A stretch of DNA of 64,000 bases from Deltaproteobacteria bacterium (lineage in GTDB: Bacteria > Myxococcota_A > Polyangia > Polyangiales > Houyiibacteriaceae): contig JAXMNT010000004.1 of assembly GCA_034670305.1 (NCBI GenBank), positions 160,001 through 224,000 of the forward strand, given 5' to 3'. Shown here piece after piece: positions 3,160-47,522 of the stretch (within the stretch, counting starts at the first letter, position 1; each line of letters opens with the position of its first letter). The notes under the pieces are model-generated. The model saw only the letters and a list, made by a program, of their open reading frames with translations. It did not search any database and was not told the DNA's origin. Position numbers and translations under genes: made by a program.

Positions 3160-4515
3160 TCAGCGCACCACGGGCGTGAACTCCCGGCGCCGCTCCAGGT
3201 CGCCCACGCCCAGCCGGCCGTCGTCGTTCATGCCGGTGCAGTAGACCTCGTCGCCCGCGCGGCGGGCGCAGGTGTGGAAGCGACCGACGGCGACTTCTTG
3301 CCAGTCGTCGAAGGGGCCGACCGCGACCGGCGCGGATTGGTCTTCGAGGTCGCCCGTGCCGAGCTGGCCTTCGGCGTTGCGGCCCCAGCACTCGAGCACG
3401 CCGCCATTGCGAATCGCGCAGCCGTGGAAGGTGTCGGTGTCGAGGTCGGCGTAGCCTTCGCCGACCACCGTCGGCACGTCTCGGTCGATGCGGTCGCCGA
3501 GGCCGAGTTGTCCGTGCGAGTTGTCGCCCCAGCATGCGAGCGCGCCGCCGGCCGTGATTCCGCAGGAGTGCGACTGGCCGGCGACCGCGCGGCTCCATCG
3601 ATCGTCGCCAACCTGGGTGGGCGTGCGCCGCTGGACTGGTGCGCCGCGTCCGAGGCCGAGTTCGTGGCTGCCGTTGCGTCCCCAGCACGCGAGCGTGCCT
3701 TGCCCGTCGGTCGCGCAGGCGTGGCCTTGCCCGATGCGGACGGTTGCCCAGTCTTGGGTCGAGGCGACCATTGGGATGGGTTGGTCGGGCACGAACGGCG
3801 GTGGGTCGTCGAGGGCGAGCTGGCCTTCGTTGTTGCGGCCCCAGCATCGAAGCACGCCGAGCGCGTCGATCGCGCAGGTGTTGTCGTAGCCGCCAGCGAA
3901 CGCGACGACCGGCGGCACCTCGACGACGCCCGGCGGCCCGTCTTCGAAGTCGCCGCGTCCGAGCTGGCCGAAGTCGTTGCGTCCCCAGCACTGCAGCGCG
4001 CCGGCGCTGTCGCGCGCGCACGCGTGGGTGCCGCGTCCGCCGACTTCGACGTAGGTGCCGGCTGGCAGGGCGACCGGCGTCGGCACCAGGTGATCCGGGC
4101 CCGCCGCACCGGACTGTCCGGACGAGTTCGACCCCCAGCAGTACACCGCCCCGTCGAAGACCGCGCAGCTGTGGGTGCGTGCGGCCGAGAGCCGCCGTTC
4201 GCCAGCGACCGGGCCGCCCGCATCCGGCTGGCGCGCATCTGCCTCGAGCGCGACGTCGGGGGTGCCGACGTCCAAGACCGCCGAGTCGCCCGCATCGGCC
4301 GGGCTCAGGGTCGGCAGGTCGTCGATGCAACCGATGGAGAGAGACAGCGCGCACAACACGGCGCTTCGGGACAGCACCGCGATGCGAGACAGCACCGCGA
4401 TGCGAGACAGCACCGCGATGCGAGACAGCACCGCGATGCGAGACGGCAACGCGATTCCAGACAACACCGCGGGGTGCAGTTCCGCGGGGCCCGTTCGCGC
4501 GCGGAACGGGTTCAT
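3160..4515 (-). CDS. RCC1/BLIP-II repeat lipoprotein
   Basis: Repeated H-C-A...G.L.CWG.N..GQLG motifs; lipobox SIGC; ATGA overlap with the upstream gene. Confidence 0.9.
   Translation of the reverse strand: MNPFRARTGPAELHPAVLSGIALPSRIAVLSRIAVLSRIAVLSRIAVLSRSAVLCALSLSIGCIDDLPTLSPADAGDSAVLDVGTPDVALEADARQPDAGGPVAGERRLSAARTHSCAVFDGAVYCWGSNSSGQSGAAGPDHLVPTPVALPAGTYVEVGGRGTHACARDSAGALQCWGRNDFGQLGRGDFEDGPPGVVEVPPVVAFAGGYDNTCAIDALGVLRCWGRNNEGQLALDDPPPFVPDQPIPMVASTQDWATVRIGQGHACATDGQGTLACWGRNGSHELGLGRGAPVQRRTPTQVGDDRWSRAVAGQSHSCGITAGGALACWGDNSHGQLGLGDRIDRDVPTVVGEGYADLDTDTFHGCAIRNGGVLECWGRNAEGQLGTGDLEDQSAPVAVGPFDDWQEVAVGRFHTCARRAGDEVYCTGMNDDGRLGVGDLERRREFTPVVR
4370..4444. repeat. 18-bp tandem repeat x4 (GACAGCACCGCGATGCGA) encoding SRIAVL in the signal-peptide region
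   Basis: Four identical units visible in the sequence. Confidence 0.95.
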
Positions 4516-5525
4516 CGCCATGTGCCGAGCCCCAGCCGCGCGAAGATGGTGAAGCCTTGCACCGCGGTCAGCCGGTCGGCGCCGTCGAGCGCGGCCACCC
4601 CGGCGAGCGGTCCCCCCAGACTGACTTCGGCGAGCAGTCGGAACCGTCCGAACGCCTGACGCAACCCTGCGCCGCCGCGCAGCCCGACGCTGACCCCGGA
4701 ACGATCCGAAGCCACTCCGTCCGCTGCGGCCTCCGCGTGAAACCGGGTCCAGCCGAGGAACCCACCGAGGGTGAGCACCAAGTGGGTGCCTTGGTCTGGA
4801 CGTCCCCAAACTCCGACGCTGAGATCGAGATCTGCATGGGCACCGCGGCTTCGCACGCTGCCGAGTTGCCCCGTGCGCCGCCGCCCCACCCGGCCGCCGA
4901 TGCCGAGCCGCGCGCCGACGTGGCGGTGTAGCCACAGCTCGAACGTGAGCCCACCCCCGCCGTGGAGCTCGCCCCCGACGTAGCGCTCCAGGTTGCCGAC
5001 GACGTCGATCCAGAGCGGCAGCGAACTGCGGACGGACCCTTCGTTCTGCTGCACCACCCGGTCGACGATCGCGCGGACCTGCGGAGGCGGTGGCGCCGCG
5101 GTCTCGGGCGCGTCGTCGAGCAGCAGCTCCGTCCAGCTCGCGCGCACGAGTTCGTCGGCGGCGACCGCGATGGCGAGGCTGCGCGCGCCGGCGTCGAAGC
5201 CGGTCAGGTCGATGTCGCGCTCCACCCACTTGTCGGTCACCGCATCGCGCACCCGGATGTTGACCACGGTGTCGGTGGTGCGCGAGAGCGTGAGGCGCGC
5301 GATGGCATCGCTCGGCGCCGCACCCGCGATGCACAGATCGAGATCTTGAACCCGAAGCGCCGCGCGAAGCTCGGCCGCGATGGCCCCACGTTCGCCCGCC
5401 GGCCACGCGCCGTCGAGCACGAGATCGAGGTGCGGCCCGGCCGCGCGACAGACGTCTTGCGCGTCGCTGCGGGAGGCGGACGCGCAGACGAGGAGCAAAG
5501 CGAGGACGATGGACGGCCGGCCCAT
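4512..5525 (-). CDS. Secreted protein with probable C-terminal outer-membrane beta-barrel
   Basis: Signal peptide [17 protein letters not shown]; alternating Gly/hydrophobic strands ending ARLGLGTWR; lies in the ECF/FecR operon. Confidence 0.7.
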
Positions 5526-5579
5526 GGGGGACGGTACTCCAGGCGCGGCTGGCGCGGCAGTTCGCGCGTGCCCGTGGTT

Positions 5580-5953
<374 letters not shown>

Positions 5954-7003
5954 TCAGTCGCACAGGTTGGCGAGCGCGCTGGTGTGCCGGCCTTGTGGGT
6001 AGGCGGACACGTAGGAAGCGTGGCTCTCTTGGCAGCCGGCGGTGTCGCCGAGGCGGGCAAGCGCCCTCACGATGCGGGCCATGGCGTCTTCGCGGAAGGG
6101 GGAGGCGCCGGAGCGGAGGGAGCGGCGGAAGGCGCGGACGGCACCGCGGAGGTCGCCGAGATCGTCCATGCGGACGCGGCCGAGTTCGAAGGCGGTGAGG
6201 GGGACGCGGGTGTCGCGGGGATGGCGGCGGAGCAGACGTTCGTACAGGGCCTCTGCTTCGGAGGCCGAGCCGGTGCGGCGGGCTTCGCGGGCGCGTTCGA
6301 AGAGTTCGTCGGCGGTGGGGCGTGCGGCGCGGGCGACCTCGGCGACGGGCTCGGCCTCGCCTTCTTCCGGATCTTCCAGGCCGTCCTGCCCGGGCGCACC
6401 CTGCTGCAGCCCATCCAGCCCACGCAGCGCTTCGACCACGGGTTCTTCCGCCGCCTCTTCTGTCCAGCGCTCGCCTGCGCGCACGCGCTGGACCTGTTCG
6501 CCTCGTCGGACGTCGACGGCTCCCCGTTCAACCGACACCGAGACCGACGCGCCGCGGGTCACGGTGAAGCGGGTGCCGATGACTCGGACTTCCACACCGT
6601 TCGCGAGCACCACGAACGTGCGCGAGGGGTTGCGGGTCACGTCGAAGGTCGCGGCGCCCTCTTCGATTCGGATGCGGGTCTCGTCGCTGCCAACGGGCGC
6701 GTCCTCTCGATGCAGGAGCGAATGGGGCGCGGCCGCGATGGTCGAGCCATCCTCGAGCCGCGCGTGCACCGACGTCTGCTCGGACGCCAGCGTGGTGCCC
6801 GCCCAGTGGGGTTCGGCCGACGGGAGCTGCGACCAGGCCACGACGCCCAGCAGGACCGCGGCCGCCACCGCCAGCCACGCACGCGACCGCATCGGCGTGC
6901 GCTTCGCCTCGAGCTGATCGGCGATGGCCGACCAGTTCTCCTCCACGCGCTCCGGCGAGAGATCCGGTTCGACGAGCGACCGGCGATCGAGCGGCTCGGT
7001 CAT
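5954..7003 (-). CDS. FecR-domain anti-sigma factor with C-terminal TPR-like region
   Basis: TM segment; [20 protein letters not shown] and [10 protein letters not shown]...V.VERGAVDV motifs; helical C-terminus; ATGA overlap with the sigma gene. Confidence 0.9.
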
Positions 7004-7690: not shown

Positions 7691-8905
7691 CTACGGGCAC
7701 CGTGCTGCCTGGCCGTAGGCCATGAACCGGATCGGGTGGCTGCCGACGAACGCGTCCGCTTCCGCCCAGTTCGTTCCGTCGCTCGAGCGGTAGAAGACCT
7801 GGTCTTCGTACCAGACCTGCCAGCCCCCACGGACCCCGACGTAGGATCCATCGCCGTACGCCACCGCGCCGAGCGTGATGCCGCCGGGCGACATGTCCGA
7901 CGAGTTCCAAGTCACCCCGTCTGCGCTGCGGTGGACCTGGCCGCGGCTCCACGCGACGAACTCGGTCCCGTTCCACACCAGCTGGGAGGACACCTCGGTG
8001 CCGATCGAAGACTCCACGAAGGTCTGGCCATCGGTGGACGCACAAGCGACACCATCACCCCCGAGGATCAACGTGGTGCCGCCGCCTGCGACGATGCCGC
8101 CGCGGGTCTGGACCGACGCGCCACATGCGCTCGGCATGCTCTCCGCGTGACGCCAGCTCACGCCGAGGTCGTCGCTCAAGACGACGTCGCGCATGCCGCC
8201 GTCTTCGCCGACCATGACGAAGCGCCCGTCCCCGAAGCCCGCGCGGCGCACGTTGAAGACCGAGAGCATGCTCTCGCCGCCCTCGACCCAGGTGTCGCCG
8301 AAGTCGGTCGAGCGGCGGACGTTGCGCGCGGCGGCCAGCACCACACCACCGCCGAAGACCACGTCGCCAAAGGTCGTGTCTGCGAGCGTGCGGGTCCAGC
8401 TCGTGCCCTCGGCAGTCCAGTCGATGCCGCCGGGCGGCCCCCAGCCCCAGGTCGCGACGAACCGTGGGCCGGTCGGTGTGGGCGCAAACGCGATGCCCTT
8501 GGCGGCGCCCGGGTGGTGGTCGCAGTCGTACTCGCCCTCGGCCGGCCAACACACCGCGTCGTCGTCGAGGGAGCGGTTGGCGACCCACGTGCGGCCGCCG
8601 TCGCACGACACCGTGGTGCGCCCGACGTGTCCCTGCGCAACGAAGACGTTGACCGCGCTTGTCTCGCCCGCGTCCTCGCCCCGCGCGTCTTCACCCGCAG
8701 CGTCTTCGGCCGCCACGTCGCTCGCGGGCGCATCGCGTTCAGGACCCGAGTCCACGCTACCCGCATCCACCCGGCCAGCGTCCAGCGGATCGGACGGGTC
8801 GGAGTCACACGCCACCCCAGTGGAGACGAGCGCGCTGGCGGCGATGAGGACAAACAGAGGGCGGGTCACAAAGGGTAGGAGCGTGACGGGGCAAGAACGG
8901 CTCAA
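7691..8905 (-). CDS. Lipoprotein with BNR/Asp-box (sialidase/Ycf48-like) beta-propeller repeats
   Basis: Lipobox GVAC; SCDGGRTW, STDFGDTW, SDDLGVSW, SADGVTW and SSDGTNW Asp-boxes. Start codon uncertain. Confidence 0.85.
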   Translation of the reverse strand: MSRSCPVTLLPFVTRPLFVLIAASALVSTGVACDSDPSDPLDAGRVDAGSVDSGPERDAPASDVAAEDAAGEDARGEDAGETSAVNVFVAQGHVGRTTVSCDGGRTWVANRSLDDDAVCWPAEGEYDCDHHPGAAKGIAFAPTPTGPRFVATWGWGPPGGIDWTAEGTSWTRTLADTTFGDVVFGGGVVLAAARNVRRSTDFGDTWVEGGESMLSVFNVRRAGFGDGRFVMVGEDGGMRDVVLSDDLGVSWRHAESMPSACGASVQTRGGIVAGGGTTLILGGDGVACASTDGQTFVESSIGTEVSSQLVWNGTEFVAWSRGQVHRSADGVTWNSSDMSPGGITLGAVAYGDGSYVGVRGGWQVWYEDQVFYRSSDGTNWAEADAFVGSHPIRFMAYGQAARCP

Positions 8906-8913
8906 ATGATTCG

Positions 8914-8962
8914 GGAAGCGGAAGCGGAAACGGAAAGAGCCGGCGCCCAGGCGGACGCCGGC
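8914..8962 (-). terminator. Hairpin plus short (GGAAGC/GGAAAC) run downstream of the four-helix-bundle gene
   Basis: On the minus strand a GCCGGCG...CGCCGGC stem is followed by TCTTTCCGTTTCCGCTTCC. Confidence 0.5.
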
Positions 8963-8968
8963 CTCCGG

Positions 8969-9283
8969 TCAACGGCTTAGCTTGTAGAGCATCGCGCAGA
9001 TATGGTCGCACCGGTCGAGGAGCGCCGGGTCGACGTCGATGTACCCGAAGACCTCTGCGAGCTGCATCGCCGCCTTCAGCTCGCTGCACTCGCCACATGC
9101 AATCGAGAACTTGTCATGACACCGCAGCCCTCGCGCTTGCTTTGCTTCCGCAATGTTGAGGACCACGCTCTGCGCCGCCCGCTGCATCTGAGACGCAAGC
9201 GAAGCGTCGTGCTTGCGAACGCTCGGCAGCACCTGCGCACGCAGCGAACGAACCAGTTCGAAAGAAGTTTGAAGAACGATCAT
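8969..9283 (-). CDS. Four-helix bundle protein (23S rRNA IVP / bAvd-like family)
   Basis: 104 aa; LASQMQRAAQSVVLNIAEA...FSIACGECSEL...L...GYI matches the family pattern Q..RAA.S...NIAEG...F..A.GS..E. Confidence 0.9.
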   Translation of the reverse strand: MIVLQTSFELVRSLRAQVLPSVRKHDASLASQMQRAAQSVVLNIAEAKQARGLRCHDKFSIACGECSELKAAMQLAEVFGYIDVDPALLDRCDHICAMLYKLSR

Positions 9284-9320
9284 CGGAGACCCCTGAGTGA
9301 AGACGACCGAGCAGTGTGCC

Positions 9321-9519
9321 CGGCGGCCGCAGGCCGCCGTCGCCTGGTGGGTCAGGGGTCAAGGGCGAAGCGACGCGCATCGCGTCGGGCCGAAGGCCCC
9401 CTTGAGGCCTGGCACACCAGGCGACACGCTTGATCACCTGCCGTGCACAACCCCACCCGCAAAATGGGCACTCGAATCCCCACTCCGAAGGAGAGGATTC
9501 GGCCGACCTCCGAAGGAGG
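9321..9519. other. Branched hairpin element upstream of the four-helix-bundle gene
   Basis: GTCGCCTGGTG(9339-49)/CACCAGGCGAC(9415-25) closing stem; TCAAGGG/CCCTTGA stem; several short-loop hairpins with GCA, GAA and CAT loops. Confidence 0.75.
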
Positions 9520-9530
9520 AGGCTACCCGC

Positions 9531-9638
9531 GGTTTCGGTTTCGGTTTCGGTTTCGGTTTCGGTAGCGGAAGCGGAAGCGGAAGCGGAAGCGGAAGCGGAA
9601 GCGGAAGCGGAAGCGGAAGCGGAAGCGGAAGCGGAAGC
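9531..9638. repeat. Hexamer array (GGTTTC)5 GGTAGC (GGAAGC)12
   Basis: Visible directly. Confidence 0.98.
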
Positions 9639-9689
9639 GGAGCAGAACTCTTTTGAGCCGTTTCCGAGTGCCCGGTCTCCTACCCCGCA

Positions 9690-11444
9690 ATGGGACCTGT
9701 GCCACACCTCCGAGCGTTCGTGCTCCTCGGCGTCTCCGTCGGCCTTCTCGGCTGCCAGGGGATCATCGACGAACCGAACTGGATGCCTCCGGACGACGAG
9801 TTCTACGAAGCGGAGGTCGACTTCGAGTGCCCCGCCGACCGAGCCCCCGTCGATGCGCCGCTGCGCCGCTTGAGTCGAACGCAGCTCGAGAACACGGTGC
9901 GCGACACGCTCACCGCGCTGCTCGGCGAAGGCGAGAGCGGGGTGGTCATGAACGAGATCAACCGTGAGCTCGGTGCCATCCCAGGCGACCTGCGCACGAC
10001 CGACTCCGACCAGCAAGAAGGCCAGCTCGCGTTCTACCGGGCAGACCAGTCGGTCGGCGGTTCCGCGGTCGACGCCCACTACGGGCTGAGCCTGCAGCTC
10101 GGCGAAGCACTGACCACGCCCTCCCGACTCGACGCCCTCGGCTCGGGCTGCTTGATGGTCGGCAACTCCGACGGCGCGTGCATCGACGGGTTCATCCGGC
10201 GGGTCGGCGACCTCACCCACCGCCGCCCGATGCAAGAGGACGAGTTCCGCTTCTACCGCGACGAGGTCTACACGGCGGGCGACCTCATCACCCTCGAAGA
10301 CCTGCGCGATGTGGTCACCGTGCTCTTCGCCCAGCCGAACTTCCTCTTTCACGTGGAAGGCACCGGCACCCTGACCGCACACGAAGCCGCCAACCGGTTG
10401 AGCTACCACCTGTGGGACACGATGCCCGACGACGCGCTTCGGGCATCCGCCGCGAGCGGCGATTTGCTGACTTCGGAGGGCTGGCAAGCCGAGGTCACCC
10501 GGGTGCTCGCCGACCCGCGGTCCGAACAAGCGTTCCGCAGCTTCCTCACCGAGTGGCTCCGCTTCGACCACCTCAACACCGCGAGCACCGGCACCGGCGC
10601 CGACTTCGAGGCCATCGCCGGCGACTTGGATCTCGACGCCGAGTTCGACCGCGCCGTCGAAGACGAGCTCGTCGATCTCTTCGCACACGTCGTGCGCACG
10701 GGCGGCACCTTCGAAGACTTCTTCCTCTCCGAGGTGACGCCGACGTCGCACCCGATCCTGGCCGAGTTCTACGGGGTCTCGCCCGCGGCGCCGGGCGAAG
10801 TCGTCGCCGTGCCGCCCGAACGCCGCGGCATCCTCACCCGCGTGGGCCTCTTGCTCTCCCGTGCGGAAGTCGCGCTGCCCACCATCAACTCGATCACCCA
10901 CCCCATCCTGCGCGGCGTGTTCGTCCGCCGGCAAATCACGTGCGACAACCTGCAGGCCGCGCCGGGCGGCGCGATGGACGACTTGCCCGTCGTCGACCGC
11001 TCGGTGGTCGGCTCTCGCGACGCGACCAACCGGCTGACCGGCAGCATCGACTGCAGCGGATGCCACGGCCGCATCAACCCGACCGGCTTCGCGTTCGAAG
11101 GCTTCGACGCCATCGGCCGCGCGCGCACGATGGAGCCGCTCTTCAACGCCGCCGGCGAACAGACCGCGCTGCTGCCCATCGACGCGAGCGCGCAGGTCTT
11201 CGAATCCGAAGACCCCATCACCGGGCCGGTCGAGCTCGGCCAGGTGCTCTTCGATTCCGAGAAACCCGGCGCGTGTTTCACCCGGCACTACGTACGCTTC
11301 GCGCTCGGCCGCACCGAGCGGCTCGAAGAAGACGGGTGTCTGTTGCGCGACATGGACGAAGCCATCGACGACGGACGACCCCTCCGCGAGGTGCTCTCCA
11401 TGGTGATCCTGAACCCCGACTTTCGAGTGCGAGCGGAGAACTGA
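9690..11444 (+). CDS. DUF1592/DUF1588 (PSD/PSCyt-type) lipoprotein with a CxxCH heme motif
   Basis: LRRLSRTQLENTVRD, ANRLSYHLWDTMPD, HPILRGVFVRRQITC and CSGCHGRINPTGFAFEGFDAIGR; lipobox LLGC. Confidence 0.9.
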   Translation: MGPVPHLRAFVLLGVSVGLLGCQGIIDEPNWMPPDDEFYEAEVDFECPADRAPVDAPLRRLSRTQLENTVRDTLTALLGEGESGVVMNEINRELGAIPGDLRTTDSDQQEGQLAFYRADQSVGGSAVDAHYGLSLQLGEALTTPSRLDALGSGCLMVGNSDGACIDGFIRRVGDLTHRRPMQEDEFRFYRDEVYTAGDLITLEDLRDVVTVLFAQPNFLFHVEGTGTLTAHEAANRLSYHLWDTMPDDALRASAASGDLLTSEGWQAEVTRVLADPRSEQAFRSFLTEWLRFDHLNTASTGTGADFEAIAGDLDLDAEFDRAVEDELVDLFAHVVRTGGTFEDFFLSEVTPTSHPILAEFYGVSPAAPGEVVAVPPERRGILTRVGLLLSRAEVALPTINSITHPILRGVFVRRQITCDNLQAAPGGAMDDLPVVDRSVVGSRDATNRLTGSIDCSGCHGRINPTGFAFEGFDAIGRARTMEPLFNAAGEQTALLPIDASAQVFESEDPITGPVELGQVLFDSEKPGACFTRHYVRFALGRTERLEEDGCLLRDMDEAIDDGRPLREVLSMVILNPDFRVRAEN

Positions 11445-13093: not shown

Positions 13094-13264
13094 GTTCGGC
13101 TTCGGCGTTCGGATTCGGATTCGGCATCGGATTCGGCATCGGATTCGGCATCGGCATCGGCTTCGGCTTCGGCTTCGGCGTCGGCGTCGGCTTCGGCGTC
13201 GGCTTCTTCGTCGGCTTCTTCGTCGGCTTCGGCGTCGGCTTCTTCGTCGGCTTCGGCGTCGGCG
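13094..13264. repeat. Compound hexamer array (GGATTC/GGCATC/GGCTTC/GGCGTC)
   Basis: Convergent intergenic region; preceded by GGCCGAAGGCCTCCTTGAGGC at 13025-13045. Confidence 0.95.
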
Positions 13265-13310
13265 CCGCCCTCGCCCTCGCCGTCGCCAGTCGACCTCCCC
13301 CTCCGCGCCT

Positions 13311-19228: not shown

Positions 19229-19436
19229 GGGCATCGGCATCGGCTTCGGCTTCGGCATCGGCTTCGGCTTCGGCATCGGCATCGGCTTCGGCTTCGACTT
19301 CGGCATCGGCATCGGCTTCGGCATCGGCATCGGCATCGGCATCGGCATCGGCTTCGGCATCGGCTTCGGCATCGGCTTCGGCTTCGGCATCGGCATCGGC
19401 ATCGGCTTCGGCATCGGCTTCGGCATCGGCATCGGC
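19229..19436. repeat. Binary hexamer array (GGCATC/GGCTTC)n
   Basis: About 35 units, flanked by GCAGCGG...CCGCTGC. Confidence 0.97.
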
Positions 19437-20586: not shown

Positions 20587-20915
20587 GAAAGCGGAAGCGG
20601 AAGCGGTCGCGGATCGGAAGCGGTAGCGGATTCGGAGCGGTAGCGGATCGGAAGCGGTAGCGGATTCGGAAGCGGTAGCGGATTCGGAAGCGGTAGCGGA
20701 TTCGGAAGCGGTAGCGGATTCGGAAGCGGCTTCCGTAGCGGCTTCGGTAGCGGCTTCGGATTCGGCGTCGGCTTCGGATTCGGCGTCGGCTTCGGATTCG
20801 GATTCGGCGTCGGCTTCGGATTCGGATTCGGCTTCGGCTTCGGGATCGGATTCGGGATCGGCTTCGGATTCGGAGCCAGGTGCCAGCAAAACCACGGGCA
20901 CGGGCACGGGCACGG
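20587..20915. repeat. Compound array (GGAAGC/GGTAGC/GGATTC/GGCTTC/GGCGTC) plus a (CACGGG)3 run
   Basis: Convergent spacer; contains an 18-bp higher-order period GGAAGCGGTAGCGGATTC. Confidence 0.96.
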
Positions 20916-25069: not shown

Positions 25070-25428
25070 CCCGTGCCCCGTGTGCCCGTGCCCCGTGCTT
25101 CCGACGCCGAAGCCGATGCCGATGCCGATGCCGATGCCGATGCCGATGCCGAAGCCGAGGCCGAGGCCGAGGCCGATGCCGAATCCGACGCCGAATCCGA
25201 ATCCGACGCCGAATCCGAATCCGAATCCGAATCCGAATCCGAATCCCGCTACCGCTGCCGCTGCCGCTGCCGCTGCCGCTGCCGCTGCCGCTGCCGCTGC
25301 CGCTGCCGCTGCCGCTGCCGCTGCAGCTGTCTCTGTCTCTGTCTCTGTCTCTGTCTCTGTCTCTGCCGCTGCCGCCCGCCGCTGCCGCCCGCCGCTGCTG
25401 CCGCTGCCGCTGCCGCTGCCGCTGCCGC
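25070..25428. repeat. Compound array (CCCGTG, GATGCC, GAGGCC, GAATCC, GCTGCC and GTCTCT blocks)
   Basis: Convergent spacer; visible directly. Confidence 0.96.
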
Positions 25429-25432
25429 TCTC

Positions 25433-26386: not shown

Positions 26387-26699
26387 CGGCTTCGGCATCG
26401 GCATCGGCATCGGCATCGGCGTCGGCTTCGGCGTCGGCTTCGGTGTCGGCTTCGGCTTCGGTGTCGGCTTCGGATTCGGCTTCGGCTTCGGGGTCGGCTT
26501 CGGGGTCGGCTTCGGTGTCGGCTTCGGTGTCGGCTTCGGCTTCGGCGTCGGCTTCGGATTCGGCGTCGGCATCGGAGTCGGCGTCGGATTCGGATTCGGA
26601 TTCGGCTTCGGCGTCGGCATCGGAGTCGGCATCGGCTTCGGCGTCGGCTTCGGCTTCGGCTTCGGCTTCGGCTTCGGCATCGGGATCGGGATCAGGATC
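26387..26699. repeat. Compound hexamer array (GGCATC/GGCTTC/GGTGTC/GGCGTC/GGATTC)
   Basis: Fills most of a divergent spacer. Confidence 0.97.
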
Positions 26700-27675: not shown

Positions 27676-28119
<444 letters not shown>

Positions 28120-35699: not shown

Positions 35700-35716
35700 C
35701 GACCCCGCGCGCGGCC

Positions 35717-36058
35717 GGATTCGGATTCGGATTCGGATTCGGACACCGAGGGCAAGGGCACGGGCAAGGGCAAGGGCAAGGGAGCTGCGGCATCCTCTCC
35801 TTCGGATTCGGATTCGGATTCGGATTCGGATTCGGATTCGGCTTCGGCTTCGGATTCGGCTTCGGGATCGGCTTCGGCATCGGCTTCGGCTTCGGCTTCG
35901 GCTTCGGCTTCGGTAGCAGCAGCAGCCGCAGAATCAGCCGCAGAATCAGCAGCAGAATCAGCAGCAGAACCAGCAGCAGAATCAGCAGCAGAACCAGCCG
36001 CAGAATCAGCAGCAGAATCAGCAGCAGAATCAGCAGCAGAATCAGCAGCAGAATCAGC
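35717..36058. repeat. Compound array: (GGATTC)n, (GGGCAA)n, (GGCTTC)n and 12-mer AGCAGAATCAGC
   Basis: Convergent spacer; the last unit overlaps the TGA stop of the gene at 36054. Confidence 0.96.
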
Positions 36059-45338: not shown

Positions 45339-47522
45339 ATGCGTTCCGTCCTCTGTGTGTTGATGCTCGTCCTCGCCAGTGTGTTGCCCCGCGTGGGCAG
45401 CGCCCAGAGCGACGCGACCGAGCCGGCGTCCACCCCCAACCGCTTCGAAGCGCACTGGGTGGACGGAGAAGAGTCGGCTGCGTTGGCGGCTTTGCGGCTC
45501 GCCGAAGAAGAGATGTTCCGGCAAGTGGCGCAACCGCTGGTGGCCAGGGCCAGCGTGACGGTCGGCATCCCTCCGAGCGCGACCAGCGCTCCGGCGCACC
45601 GCACCGATCACCCGGCCGCGGTCGGCACCCCGCGCTGGCTCGAAGGACTCACGTTGCCGGATCTCCCGGTGCGGTTTCACGACCGCGTCGTGCGCTACCT
45701 CGAGTACTTCCGGGACTCGCGCCGTGGTCAGTCGTTGATGCGTGCATGGCTGCGGCGTTCGAGCCGGTACGGCGGCATGATCACCCAGACCCTGGAAGCA
45801 CGCGGCTTGCCCCGCGACCTGCGCTGTGTGGCGATGGCCGAAAGCGGATTCGATCCCACCGTCCGGTCCCACCGCGGCGCACTCGGCATGTGGCAGTTCG
45901 TGCCGCGCACGGGACGCGAGTACGACTTGAACTCGAACCGGTGGTTCGACGAGCGCATGGATCCCATCAAGTCGACCGACGCGGCCGCGCGCATGCTCGG
46001 CGACCTGCATCGACGGTTCGGAAGCTGGGAGCTCGCGCTGGCCGCATACAACATGGGCTACGGCGCCCTGCTTCGCGCCATCCGCAAGTACAACACCAAC
46101 GACTACTGGGTGCTCGCGGATCTGGAAGCAGGCCTCCCCTTCGAGACCACCATCTACGTGGCGAAGATCATGGCGTGTTCGGTGGTGATGCGAAACACCG
46201 AGACCTTCGGGTTCGGAGAACTCACCCGCGACCCGCCCCTCGAGGTGGAACCCTTTCATGTGGGCGGCGGCACGACCCTTCGGCAGATCGCGAGCGCCGC
46301 GTCGATGACGGTCGAGGAGATCTCGGCGCTCAACCCGGAGTTGCGCCGCGGGCGCACCCCACCCGGACGCGAAGGTTGGGACGTGCGGGTGCCCGCCGAC
46401 CGATTGGAGGCGTTGAGTGCGCGCTGGGCGCGGCGGCGCGCGCAAGACCATCCGACCCAGCCCTACGTGGTGCGCTTTGGCGAGACGGTGGCGATGATCG
46501 CACACCGGTACCGCACGCGAGAACGGGACCTGGTCGAACTCAACGGCATCCTCGACGACGAGACGATCGGTGCCGGCACCACGCTCCTGGTTCCGGCGGT
46601 CGAACCACGCGAAGAAGAGACGCCCGAAGAGGCGCCAGTGGTCGCGGTGCCGCAGGGTGTCCGCCCGCCCTCCGGCACGGTTCGAGTCATCTACCGCGTC
46701 TCGCGCGGCGACACGCTCTGGGAGATCGCGCGGTTCTTCGACACACGCGTGGCGGCGGTGGCGGAGTGGAACCAACTCGACCCGCACGCGACCTTGCACC
46801 GCGGCATGTACCTGCAGCTCTTCGTCTCGCGCAGCCGCGATCTGAGCCGTGCCATCGTGCTCCAGGAGAACGACGTGCGGCTCGTCACGGTGGGCACCGA
46901 GGCGTTCTTCGACCAACACGAAGAGGCGCAGGGGCGCGTGCGCTTCCGCTACCGCGTGGTGGAAGGCGACACGATCGCGGGCATCGCCCGGCGGTTCGGA
47001 CTGTCCACGGGGAGCGTGGCGCGCATCAACCAGTTCTCGCGGCGGACGACGTTGCAGATCGGACAGGAAGTGATCGTGTACGCGGACGAGGGCCGCGTGC
47101 CGGCGAGGTTCCGCCGGCGGAGTGCGGGGGATGCCGCGGCTGATTCTGATGCCGGCGCTGCTGCTGGGGGGGATGCTGATGCTGCGGCTGATGCTGCGGC
47201 TGCGACTGACGCTGAGGCTGAGGCTGACTCCGAAGCCGATGCCGATGCCGAAGCCGATGCCGATGCCGATGCCGAAGCCGATGCCGATGCCGATGCCGAT
47301 GCCGATGCCGATGCCGATGCCGATGCCGAAGCCGATGCCGACGCCGAAACCGATGCCGATGCCGATGCCGATGCCGATGCCGATGCCGATGCCGATGCCG
47401 ATGCCGATGCCGAGGCCGATGCCGATGCCGATGCCGAAGCCGAAGCCGACGCCCAAAGCGACGCCGATGCCGACGCCGGGTCTGCCGTTGCCGACACGAC
47501 CGTGGTGGAGCCGCGCGAGTGA
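45339..47522 (+). CDS. mltD: MltD-like lytic transglycosylase with LysM domains and acidic Ala-Asp tail
   Basis: MAESGF, GMWQF..TG and LALAAYNMG; several LysM motifs ([20 protein letters not shown]). Confidence 0.88.
47130..47476. repeat. Hexamer array (GATGCC/GAAGCC)n inside the 3' end of the MltD-like CDS
   Basis: Same units as the intergenic arrays; no stop codon lies between the last LysM and the array. Confidence 0.95.

Follow-up and report, generated by a model that had tools for sequence, protein, structure and literature searches.

A PF05635 gene bordered by hexamer arrays as a probable member of an amplified cassette family with a covarying RNA leader

The locus here described raises the question of whether a small gene placed between runs of tandem hexamers, with a folded region ahead of it, is a solitary gene in repeat-rich DNA or one example of a defined genetic unit, and in the latter case of what kind. 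It lies in a stretch of 64,000 nucleotides (the window) of contig JAXMNT010000004.1, from assembly GCA_034670305.1 of a Polyangiales bacterium (the source genome, G000). The gene belongs to the PF05635 "IVS proteins", which are very common, have solved structures and show a fold close to that of the DGR factor Avd, even though, to our knowledge, no role is known for them outside DGRs.

At this locus, hexamer arrays on both flanks enclose a folded leader of ~245 nt, a minus-strand PF05635/TIGR02436 gene and a GC-rich hairpin on its 3' side (Table 1). The three arrays detected by TRF are all in one orientation, and the downstream and upstream unit types are the same, in agreement with an earlier note on this DNA, made from its letters alone, that described same-orientation GGAAGC-type runs on both sides of the gene. 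The opening units of the downstream array would give the post-stop hairpin its T-rich tail. No sigma-70-type promoter consensus was detected in 8800-9750, where it must be considered that promoters of the host group may differ. The window is free of rRNA, as had been claimed for the locus, Rfam at the gathering threshold finding in it a tRNA only.

Table 1. Features of the cassette at the window locus, listed in the direction of the gene (positions are those of the window).
Feature	Position	Strand	Description
Upstream hexamer arrays	9530..9641	-	Gene strand: (CTTCCG)n then (AAACCG)n, stopping at the leader 5' border; TRF, plus strand: (CGGTTT)x5.7 at 9530-9563 and (CGGAAG)x13.7 at 9560-9641
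Leader 5' module	9456..9529	-	Starts ..GGGTAGCCTC.., then two small hairpins with cUUCGg loops; basis: sequence, fold, copy alignment
Leader core	9314..9455	-	~140 nt, structured and conserved; basis: match to covariance model R2, covariation
Linker with ribosome-binding site	9284..9313	-	..CAGGGGTCTCCG ATG
Four-helix-bundle protein gene	8969..9283	-	104 aa; PF05635/TIGR02436, subfamily A
Terminator-like GC-rich hairpin	8938..8963	-	5 nt past the stop codon; 11 pairs, 9 of them G-C
Short downstream hexamer array	8914..8935	-	Gene strand CCGTTTCCGCTTCCGCTTCC; TRF (GGAAGC)x3.7

The 104-aa ORF scores 56.8 bits against PF05635 (E 3e-15, cut-off 33.8) and 59.7 bits against TIGR02436 (E 2.8e-16, cut-off 24), bearing out the four-helix-bundle gene that had been claimed. 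Its AlphaFold2 model displays four helices with a pLDDT of 95.3, and Foldseek relates this model to 2gsc/2rld with TM values of 0.82-0.86 and to the DGR Avd structures 8ub7/4dwl with a TM of 0.71, the profile match to 2gsc reaching an E of 7e-11. By profile and by model, the protein is a member of PF05635/TIGR02436 with a predicted four-helix-bundle fold like that of 2gsc/2rld.

The earlier note regarded the gene as a lone one. On the contrary, 48 PF05635 matches are found in the source genome, 33 of them intact copies of 102-104 aa that distribute into subfamilies A (8), B (13) and C (12), beside at least five broken copies, with ~35 cassettes per genome. Cassette proteins have pI values of 8.4-9.8, those of subfamily A being barely basic (net charge of 0 to +2). 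The copies share a common build of ~0.62 kb, in which a hexamer array is followed by the leader, the ORF and a GC hairpin, and in many cases by another array. The alignment of seven other subfamily-A copies to that of the window extends from one array to the other (window 9640 to 8914/8939), similarity between copies ends within the arrays, and a hairpin stands behind every stop codon, being seen in all three subfamilies. The leader 5' module is common to subfamilies A and B and is also found in the genome as solo modules, together with broken, internally deleted and orphan pieces of the cassette, so that cassettes with and without the gene both occur. The same layout of array, leader and gene recurs in other genera; a search of public genome contigs for related loci returned only 2 distant ones, both in an uncultured Bdellovibrionales MAG. 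The 33 intact recurrences and the array-to-array alignment of the A copies sustain the previous suggestion that gene, structured leader and repeat flanks form a unit, and we hold it somewhat probable that the locus belongs to a family of ~0.62-kb cassettes that has undergone amplification, each composed of array, covarying RNA leader, PF05635 ORF and hairpin.

The first alternative to be weighed is that of an ordinary, old paralogous family provided with a 5'-UTR regulator, in which gene conversion operates with no mobility and the arrays are incidental to intergenic DNA filled with hexamers. We consider it unlikely. Copies situated at unrelated loci, tandem and convergent pairs among them, orphan leaders, internal deletions and a copy number that ranges from 0 to 30 among relatives argue against it, whereas the neighbour genes, compared in orientation alone, show no fixed orientation, which is in its favour.

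The arrays themselves bear on this alternative in both directions. Tandem repeats flanking the homologues, whose enrichment the earlier note had proposed to test, are indeed enriched: a strict period-6 detector finds a 5' array in 25 of the 33 copies vs 362 of 4099 control genes (odds ratio 32, 8.6-fold), and a 3' array starting 0-95 nt past the stop codon in 17 of the 33 vs 542 of 4099 (odds ratio 7), the controls coming from a crude GC3-based caller that covers 69% of the genome and the Fisher tests overstating the enrichment because the cassette copies are related. In the array-poor relative G012, which contains 8.5 times fewer (CCGANN) windows than the source genome (1246 vs 10572), an array is nonetheless present at the leader 5' border in 14 of 14 copies examined. 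Array unit types and orientation are, in addition, subfamily-specific, CCGANN being read on the gene strand in 10 of the 10 upstream arrays detected for subfamily C and in all 14 G012 copies. The enrichment, its persistence in G012 and the subfamily-specific types are all contrary to incidental arrays. Short-period arrays also stand just upstream of 10 of the 12 matches of leader model R2 (see below) in other genera, and likewise in a second family. Supporting the paralogue alternative, on the contrary, the source genome holds a total of 1866 arrays, mostly away from cassettes, and 13% of the crude control genes carry one just past the stop codon. The 3' arrays are missing in 16 of the 33 copies of the source genome and in 12 of the 14 of G012. 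Arrays differ unit by unit, as well as in length and unit between copies, and no constant nucleotides are observed at the array-leader junction among aligned copies. As imperfect 6-nt tandem arrays of variable length and unit they resemble the long simple-sequence repeats or VNTRs of prokaryotes, from which the subset here considered differs in that its arrays border a gene cassette at a constant place and have a unit type and an orientation proper to each subfamily.

On either strand, region 9284-9529 folds more stably than any of 200 dinucleotide shuffles (z of -4.3 for the gene strand and -4.1 for the plus strand), and all five of the nested hairpins that had been pointed out 5' of the gene are present in its sequence. 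In the core, a long-range helix forms the outer part and a long stem closes a junction, ..CAAGGG-(GGCC UUCG GGCC hairpin)-(second hairpin)-CUUCGCCCUUGAC.., while a GGCGGCC-UGC-GGCCGCC hairpin overlaps the outer helix on its 3' strand; inverted repeats listed there include CGGCGGCC/GGCCGCCG at 9321-9339 and 27-nt arms at 9339-9365/9399-9425. Alignment across subfamilies by MAFFT and RNAalifold recovered only 20 pairs and failed once G012 was joined, covariance models being used for this reason, with the covariation alignments fitted to them. Model R1, built from the 8 subfamily-A leaders alone, was applied to the 19 of 39 non-A loci (from B, C and G012) that gave full-length matches. In these leaders 86.8% of the cells are paired vs 68.7% in shuffles, with double changes at 35 of 50 pairs, while slid controls gave 35-46% of cells paired and 5-12 pairs with double changes.

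Model R2, built in turn from those 19 leaders and, therefore, with no subfamily A in its training, matches the window core (G000:C4:169314-169455, minus strand) with 115.5 bits. Its scan of the source genome produced 38 matches, every one on the gene strand, which end 31-64 nt ahead of the start codon in 31 of the 33 intact genes, the gap between core and start codon being 31-36 nt in 29 of the 33 copies. On 31 leaders that had no part in its training (8 from A, 11 from G012 and 12 from other genomes), 88.6% of the cells pair, compared with 40-43% in slid controls, and double changes occur at 43 of 50 pairs. Nine reverse-strand rows were removed from the R2 alignment before these pair counts, and a mixed-strand R1 alignment was left unused; R2 matches in G116 and G072 (L118), with no PF05635 ORF, are doubtful, L118 being kept in the 31-row count. 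The core is also found ahead of PF05635 homologues in other genera and in one other family. The leader is thus conserved and covarying, a point that had been raised as a check on the nature of the locus.

This structure had been described as a series of GNA triloops on the plus strand and read as C(GNA)G loops of single-stranded DNA. The triloops do exist in the plus-strand sequence, but, the gene being on the minus strand, their GAA loops become cUUCGg when the gene strand is read. Considering that (i) cUUCGg loops are found on the gene strand, and (ii) gene-strand GU and UG pairs in the 31 untrained leaders outnumber their opposite-strand equivalents, AC and CA, by 90 to 25 (the leaders counted first gave a smaller excess, 48 to 26), the sequence comparison favours a leader that behaves as sense-strand RNA, and disfavours the single-stranded DNA reading. 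Rfam 15 returned nothing for the leader at the gathering threshold, the only rows in 8700-9900 being three chance-level miRNA ones (E 2.9-9), and the leader is a candidate new RNA family absent from Rfam.

The 9 nt at 9288-9296 can pair without a mismatch with 9352-9360, which belongs to the long stem, and do so in the minimum-energy fold, so that the ribosome-binding site could be masked in an alternative structure; this complement is found in subfamily A. The fixed spacing, the sense-strand structure and the anti-RBS complement would fit a cis-regulator bound by its own predicted gene product. In the cassette reading that we prefer, the leader would serve as the gene's 5' untranslated RNA and might bind its own mildly basic product, resulting in translational feedback and/or in a ribonucleoprotein, by analogy with Avd on structured RNA. 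The cassette may multiply as a unit, either bearing array seeds at its ends or homing to arrays, which would afterwards lengthen or shorten through slippage, and the T-rich tail of the terminator hairpin would be provided by the downstream array.

Both protein and leader are under purifying selection in all three subfamilies, with dN/dS of 0.095 (A), 0.135 (B) and 0.056 (C) at dS values of 0.43-0.61, and p-distances of 0.09-0.11 for the 170 nt ahead of the ATG. Copies are not recent, the most alike pair being 97.6% identical and dS ~0.5. In the tree, the 33 copies of the source genome and the 14 of G012 part at a 100/99 branch, and they form genome-specific clades with star-like subclades. Genome-specific clades could also arise if long-standing paralogues evolved in concert. 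Strong purifying selection on every copy at such dS also agrees with the paralogue alternative. The same applies to the apparent lack of transposition hallmarks: neither terminal inverted repeats (TIRs) nor target-site duplications (TSDs) were seen between aligned copies, one scar-like site showed GCCTC at both junctions, and PF05635 is the sole ORF of the cassette, with no transposase or other recombinase inside the unit. By the TIR and TSD criterion, the cassette differs from a MITE or a mobile insertion cassette.

Empty-site alleles near the BNR lipoprotein gene had been suggested as a further check, and no clean one was found by synteny or in four metagenome runs. Orthologues of the downstream BNR-like lipoprotein in five relatives are 46-56% identical to it, and no cassette, DUF1592 gene or sigma-factor gene lies within 1.5 kb of these five; the neighbourhood being thus not conserved in relatives, an empty site cannot be defined there. 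The four DNA metagenome runs, all of one study, contain the locus as short contigs broken at the repeat, none of which joins across the cassette, and hence are uninformative on empty sites or expression. No RNA sequencing runs holding the locus are listed.

Non-LTR retrotransposons carry microsatellite tails, and a second alternative is, accordingly, that of a retro-mobilised element whose RNA would be copied by a host reverse transcriptase (RT) with the aid of the Avd-like protein, the arrays being slippage tails. We regard it as very unlikely. It would agree with the structured RNA that adjoins the gene, with the subfamily-specific end repeats, with the presence of three RTs in the genome (RVT_1 matches on contigs C23, C10 and C67), and with the Avd-type fold, Avd being, in the portion of PMC10053308 available, the RT partner in DGRs. 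The likeness to bAvd (PDB 4dwl, 8ub7) extends to a small basic protein beside a structured RNA. Against this, identity to Avd is just 10-14%, the nearer structures 2gsc/2rld have no assigned function, and the cassette gene is multicopy. Moreover, none of the three RTs is on the contig of the window, confirming the absence of an RT at the locus that had been noted, and all of them score best vs retron-family models, below the NCBIfam cut-offs, instead of vs DGR models, no DGR-type RT being found in the source genome. The absence of recent copies is likewise contrary to retro-mobilisation, as are the arrays, whose units differ from one to the next and most of which have no cassette beside them.

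Slightly less plausible still is an element of single-stranded DNA hairpins mobilised in trans by transposases of the HUH class (Y1/RAYT-type), which would recognise the GNA-triloop hairpins and use the arrays as a run of target sites. The genome contains 11 Y1_Tnp genes, RAYT-like below cut-off, hairpins occur at both unit ends, a plus-strand GCGAAGC motif lies in the conserved core, and the absence of TIRs and TSDs is expected for the IS200/IS605 or REPIN class, whose derived palindromes are, similarly to the cassette, dispersed, hairpin-rich intergenic repeats. On the contrary, the wobble counts of 90 to 25 and the cUUCGg loops favour the gene strand, what is conserved is a single large fold of many helices, set at constant spacing from the start codon, and not a pair of subterminal hairpins, the array-leader junction is devoid of constant nucleotides, and the cassette gene is a non-transposase under strong purifying selection. 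The search for RTs and HUH nucleases that the earlier note proposed returned both, but the Y1 loci form a separate repeat family of ~1.2 kb, 8 of the 11 lacking an array within 1.2 kb, and show no common ends with the cassette, except for array matches at one locus and a further match of 29 nt among those listed. The HUH link was consequently rejected, since the Y1 loci and the cassette have neither ends nor arrays in common.

The least probable alternative, an IVS-type hairpin cassette whose flanking arrays would pair into a long processed stem around the gene, finds some agreement in the shared protein family (as far as the portion of PMC4990558 available describes it), in the short-period arrays on both sides and in two G012 copies (L089 and L091) in which the upstream array recurs downstream as its reverse complement, but is largely refuted for the source genome, where, of 32 copies, the flanks share direct 6-mers in 20 and inverted ones in 8, the arrays of the two sides mostly run in the same direction or differ in type, the duplex energies of upstream and downstream flanks are no better than those of shuffles (z of -2.7 to +5.5), the two arrays of the window are co-oriented and the 23S rRNA gene is without a cassette.

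The helix-45 23S rRNA IVS of Coxiella burnetii, with its S23p/PF05635 ORF, is called a selfish genetic element in that same portion of PMC4990558, and both systems are compact structured units of a few hundred nt, with a ~100-aa ORF of the same protein family. The cassette, however, lies outside rRNA: besides the window having none, the one 23S rRNA match of the source genome (C85:11277-14289, 3013 nt vs 2925 of the model) is on a contig with no PF05635 match. It also differs in having direct hexamer arrays as flanks instead of an inverted processing stem, its own ~140-nt covarying leader, and ~35 copies per genome. Judged by its RT content, location and flanks, the cassette falls outside both the DGRs and the 23S rRNA intervening sequences. 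In the portions of the literature available, no account was found of PF05635 cassettes that occur in many copies and carry a conserved leader or flanking hexamers.

A bolder extension of the cassette reading is that of a self-propagating ribonucleoprotein element tied to microsatellites, in which an Avd-like pentamer and the leader RNA, with host polymerase or recombination, would copy the unit beside or into hexamer arrays, perhaps seeding or extending them, PF05635 cassettes then being a widespread and so far unrecognised mobile class associated with repeats. We consider this distinctly unlikely, below the paralogue alternative and above the retro-mobilised one.

As for its meaning, the PF05635 gene comes here with a defined, ~140-nt covarying RNA at a fixed distance and with an array at a fixed border, and dozens of selected copies per genome, in several genera, offer a testable handle on the PF05635 family, with the concrete hypothesis that the protein may bind leader RNA and array DNA. 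The cassette ties a gene unit to bacterial microsatellites and possibly explains the origin of rRNA intervening sequences. If the reading as a microsatellite-tied ribonucleoprotein were true, these intervening sequences would be a special case of a repeat-associated mobile class, and the cassettes would drive the unusual hexamer-array landscape of these genomes.

The gene at the window locus, described in the earlier note as a lone one, belongs to a family with 33 intact copies in the genome concerned (G000; 7.93 Mb in 105 contigs). PF05635 matches number 48 there, and a profile search of all stop-to-stop ORFs retrieved 38 ORFs, 33 of them intact copies of 102-104 aa. According to identity to the window protein, these were divided into subfamilies A (8 copies including that of the window, 88-93%), B (13 copies, 60-63%) and C (12 copies, 49-53%). 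Along with the gene, its leader DNA recurs as well, and all copies share a common build of hexamer array, leader of ~245 nt, ORF, post-stop GC hairpin and, often, another array. The combination of gene, structured leader and repeat flanks first noticed in the window is a recurring unit in G000. Alignments of the window copy to the seven other A copies run from one array to the other (window 9640 to 8914/8939) and show no similarity past them. Tandem copies of the cassette occur on contig C46. Cassettes of relatives (examples are from G012, G002 and G013) are often paired closely on opposite strands, their two genes being some 20-100 nt apart; in G013 the two are arranged tail-to-tail, each gene having its own outer leader and array.

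Coordinates of the cassette at the window locus and of related or neighboring features (C, contig of G000 unless another genome is named; L, locus)
Feature	Location	Strand	Remarks
104-aa ORF	window 8969-9283	minus	PF05635 3e-15, above cut-off; TIGR02436 2.8e-16
(GGAAGC)x3.7	window 8914-8935		Tandem Repeats Finder
(CGGTTT)x5.7	window 9530-9563		Tandem Repeats Finder
(CGGAAG)x13.7	window 9560-9641		Tandem Repeats Finder
Terminator-like hairpin	window 8963-8938	minus	5 nt past stop codon
Further window arrays (examples)	5580-5953, 13095-13303, 19230-19436, 20589-20873, 25101-25429, 26387-26699, 27677-28119, 35716-36058, 47230-47478		
B array and 5' stub joined to B downstream array	C43:58214-58304	minus	45-nt stub
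Internally deleted copy	C22:43671		5' module and 3' hairpin kept
Solo 5' modules	C1:196128-196237; C6:187925; C3:81142; C63:8850 and 10574; C14:53496; C22:43671		
Leaders with insertions	C10:57088 (L077); C28:6826, C68:36055 (L063, L071); L089, L090 of G012		
Opposite-strand pairs	G013 C11:206989-208081 (L111); G002 C6:420072-420676; G012 C1:7848143-7848830		
Reverse transcriptases	C23:86418; C10:168437; C67:18832		439-554 aa, long extensions at the N terminus; one is 5 kb away from a C-type cassette (C67:13298)
Y1 repeat	C20:45721; C31:83470; C38:23649; C68:18551; C1:180072		six more copies

The window protein is confidently modeled by AlphaFold2 as four helices (pLDDT 95.3; input alignment of 26 copies). 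A structural search placed closest to this model 2gsc and 2rld (TM 0.82-0.86), solved PF05635 proteins of unknown function, followed in the ranking by the DGR accessory protein Avd (8ub7 and 4dwl; TM 0.71, identity 10-14%). PF05635 is likened to Avd in PMC10053308, and PMC4990558 describes 23S rRNA intervening sequences (IVS) as carrying PF05635 ORFs and calls them selfish elements; a literature search turned up no publication reporting PF05635 cassettes that are multicopy and have a conserved leader or hexamer flanks. The PF05635 product is mildly basic (pI 8.4-9.8). The 246-nt stretch that separates the ORF from the long array has a better fold than 200 of 200 shuffles on both strands (z -4.3 and -4.1). 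All hairpins listed in the earlier note were located in the window sequence, its plus-strand "GAA triloops" being cUUCGg loops on the gene strand, since the gene lies on the minus strand. The initial units of the downstream array (8914-8937, minus strand) give the post-stop hairpin its T-rich tail. TT-containing arrays might act as terminator tails across the GC-rich genome.

A covariance model trained on the 8 A leaders only (R1) detected B and C leaders, plus two leaders from another genus, on the gene strand. Of the 39 non-A loci, the 19 with full-length matches were carried forward, a choice that favors the structure; in these, 86.8% of cells pair versus 68.7% in shuffles and changes on both sides occur at 35 of 50 pairs, with 35-46% pairing and 5-12 double-change pairs in slid controls (partners moved by 1-3 columns). 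The model built from these 19 leaders (R2) has 38 matches in G000, every one on the gene strand. They end 31-64 nt upstream of the start codon in 31 of the 33 intact genes (31-36 nt in 29); the two leaders missed carry a large insertion or have had their 5' half replaced, and five matched leaders are without an intact gene. Among 31 leaders outside the R2 training set (8 of subfamily A, 11 of G012 and 12 of other genomes, nine reverse-strand rows having been removed beforehand and one retained row, L118, being doubtful), 88.6% of cells pair, a value that, like that of the first set, is inflated because the alignments are fitted to the model; slid controls give 40-43%, and double changes are found at 43 of 50 pairs. 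The leader structure is conserved and covaries. G-U/U-G pairs number 90 vs 25 A-C/C-A in this set, and 48 vs 26 in the first. The slid controls argue for a real fold, as do stems whose sequences differ entirely between A, B, C and G012.

This fold comprises an outer long-range helix, a long stem, and a junction (CAAGGG ... CCUUGAC) with two or three hairpins. In subfamily A, a GGCGGCC-UGC-GGCCGCC hairpin offers a competing pairing for the outer helix's 3' strand, and 9 nt of the 3' strand of the long stem (window 9352-9360) perfectly complement the ribosome-binding region (9288-9296); a 5-nt equivalent was seen by eye in B, and none in C. Such complementarity hints at a possible on/off switch. 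No matching family was found in Rfam, the leader being a candidate for a new RNA family. Hairpin-rich insertions of 60-85 nt are present in some leaders, either within the first hairpin of the junction or immediately 5' of the long stem.

A period-6 detector found 1866 arrays in G000 (1519 of at least 30 bp), typically with units of a constant 4-nt core and two variable bases (CCGANN, GGGCAN, CCGCTN). As they cover 1.4% of the genome, array adjacency alone could be chance, and the cassettes might then be an old family of paralogues whose arrays are incidental, a reading that we consider unlikely. Against it, 25 of 33 copies have an array whose end lies 200-360 nt ahead of the start codon, at the leader border, whereas 362 of 4099 crudely called control genes of G000 have one ending at any point in the 400 nt upstream. 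On the 3' side, 17 of 33 copies have an array starting within 95 nt past the stop codon, versus 542 of 4099 controls (13%), and 12 of the 33 copies have arrays on both sides. Odds ratios are 32 (5' side) and 7 (3' side), the p-values being overstated because copies are related and gene calls rough. The adjacency is not chance. The array unit tracks the subfamily, being on the gene strand CCGCTN upstream and downstream in A, CAGCNN upstream and TCGGCN downstream in B, and CCGANN upstream in C. In the window, hexamer arrays also read as GS/GF/GV dipeptide runs in a long minus-strand ORF with RCC1-like repeats (..CWGRNxxGQLG..; 3160-6060) when taken from its most upstream start, its real start probably lying downstream of them.

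Incidental arrays are further disfavored by G012, a genome from another genus whose proteins share 47-49% identity, where (CCGANN) windows are 8.5 times fewer (1246 vs 10572 in G000). In the best-scoring 14 of its 30 matches, a (GCCGAN)n array was seen by eye directly at the 5' border of the leader in 14 of 14 copies, two of them also having a downstream array; leader architecture is the same, and array orientation is that of subfamily C. Within the family, R2 detects the leader in 12 of 61 genomes, which belong to 6 of 18 genera; under stricter filters it does so in one more family of the same class. Matches in relatives lie 3-46 nt upstream of ~100-130-aa ORFs, and the four such ORFs tested all match the family profile. 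By eye, short-period arrays of quite different units lie just upstream of 10 of the 12 leader matches in other genera, the other two being one at a contig start and one without an array. Thus, since it recurs at the leader border in G012 and other genera, the 5' array acts like a component of the unit.

Comparison of copies inside each subfamily gives dN/dS values of 0.095 (A), 0.135 (B) and 0.056 (C) at a dS of 0.43-0.61, and the 170 nt upstream of the ATG differ by only 0.09-0.11, indicating purifying selection on both protein and leader in many separate copies. None of the G000 copies is very recent, as the closest pair is only 97.6% identical. In a protein tree of 33 G000 and 14 G012 copies the genomes part at a 100/99 branch and every subfamily is star-like with short tips, a pattern that would fit duplication bursts after the genera split, or concerted evolution.

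Broken forms also occur. On C43, a B downstream array, GGCTTCGG.., immediately follows a B upstream array and a 5' stub with the end ..TGTAGCCTC; since complete B cassettes terminate in ..CGCGGGCCTC followed by GGCTTCGG, GCCTC stands at both cassette junctions. This single case looks like an excision scar or empty site. No clean empty site was found in relatives or metagenomes, synteny being lost in five relatives and contigs of four metagenome runs being broken at the repeat. The 5' module of B and A leaders (array, ..TGTAGCCTC.. and small cUUCGg hairpins) is also found solo, with neither the ~140-nt structured core nor the gene; the one on C1 is a 99% copy placed 104 nt upstream of an unrelated 1073-aa gene, so it may represent a portable element that supplies a promoter or 5' end.

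Retro-mobilisation is improbable, as G000 has only three reverse transcriptases, matched best by retron-family models (below cut-off) and all on contigs other than that of the window; a DGR is rejected likewise. An HUH/ssDNA element is slightly less probable still: the 11 Y1 genes of G000 belong to a separate 1.2-kb repeat (80-90% mutual identity; 232-249-aa IS200-like, RAYT-like transposase, below cut-off) sharing no ends with the cassette, 8 of the 11 loci have no array within 1.2 kb, and the G-U excess on the gene strand also speaks against it. TIR and TSD of MITE type were not seen at cassette copies. An rRNA IVS was discarded, the sole 23S rRNA match being on C85, a contig without PF05635 match; the window indeed contains neither reverse transcriptase nor rRNA, as initially stated. 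An IVS-type hairpin between the arrays is the least credible option, since the two flanks do not pair: their duplex energies equal those of shuffles, and their common 6-mers are direct in 20 and inverted in 8 of 32 copies.

From the observed anatomy, conservation, covariation, selection, amplification pattern and array association, we infer, with confidence a little above even, a composite mechanism. The leader would be the sense 5' UTR of the PF05635 gene and an RNA partner of its mildly basic, Avd-fold product, while the cassette would have multiplied as a unit along with array seeds, or into arrays. The arrays would subsequently have been altered by slippage, and the downstream one would also serve as a terminator tail.
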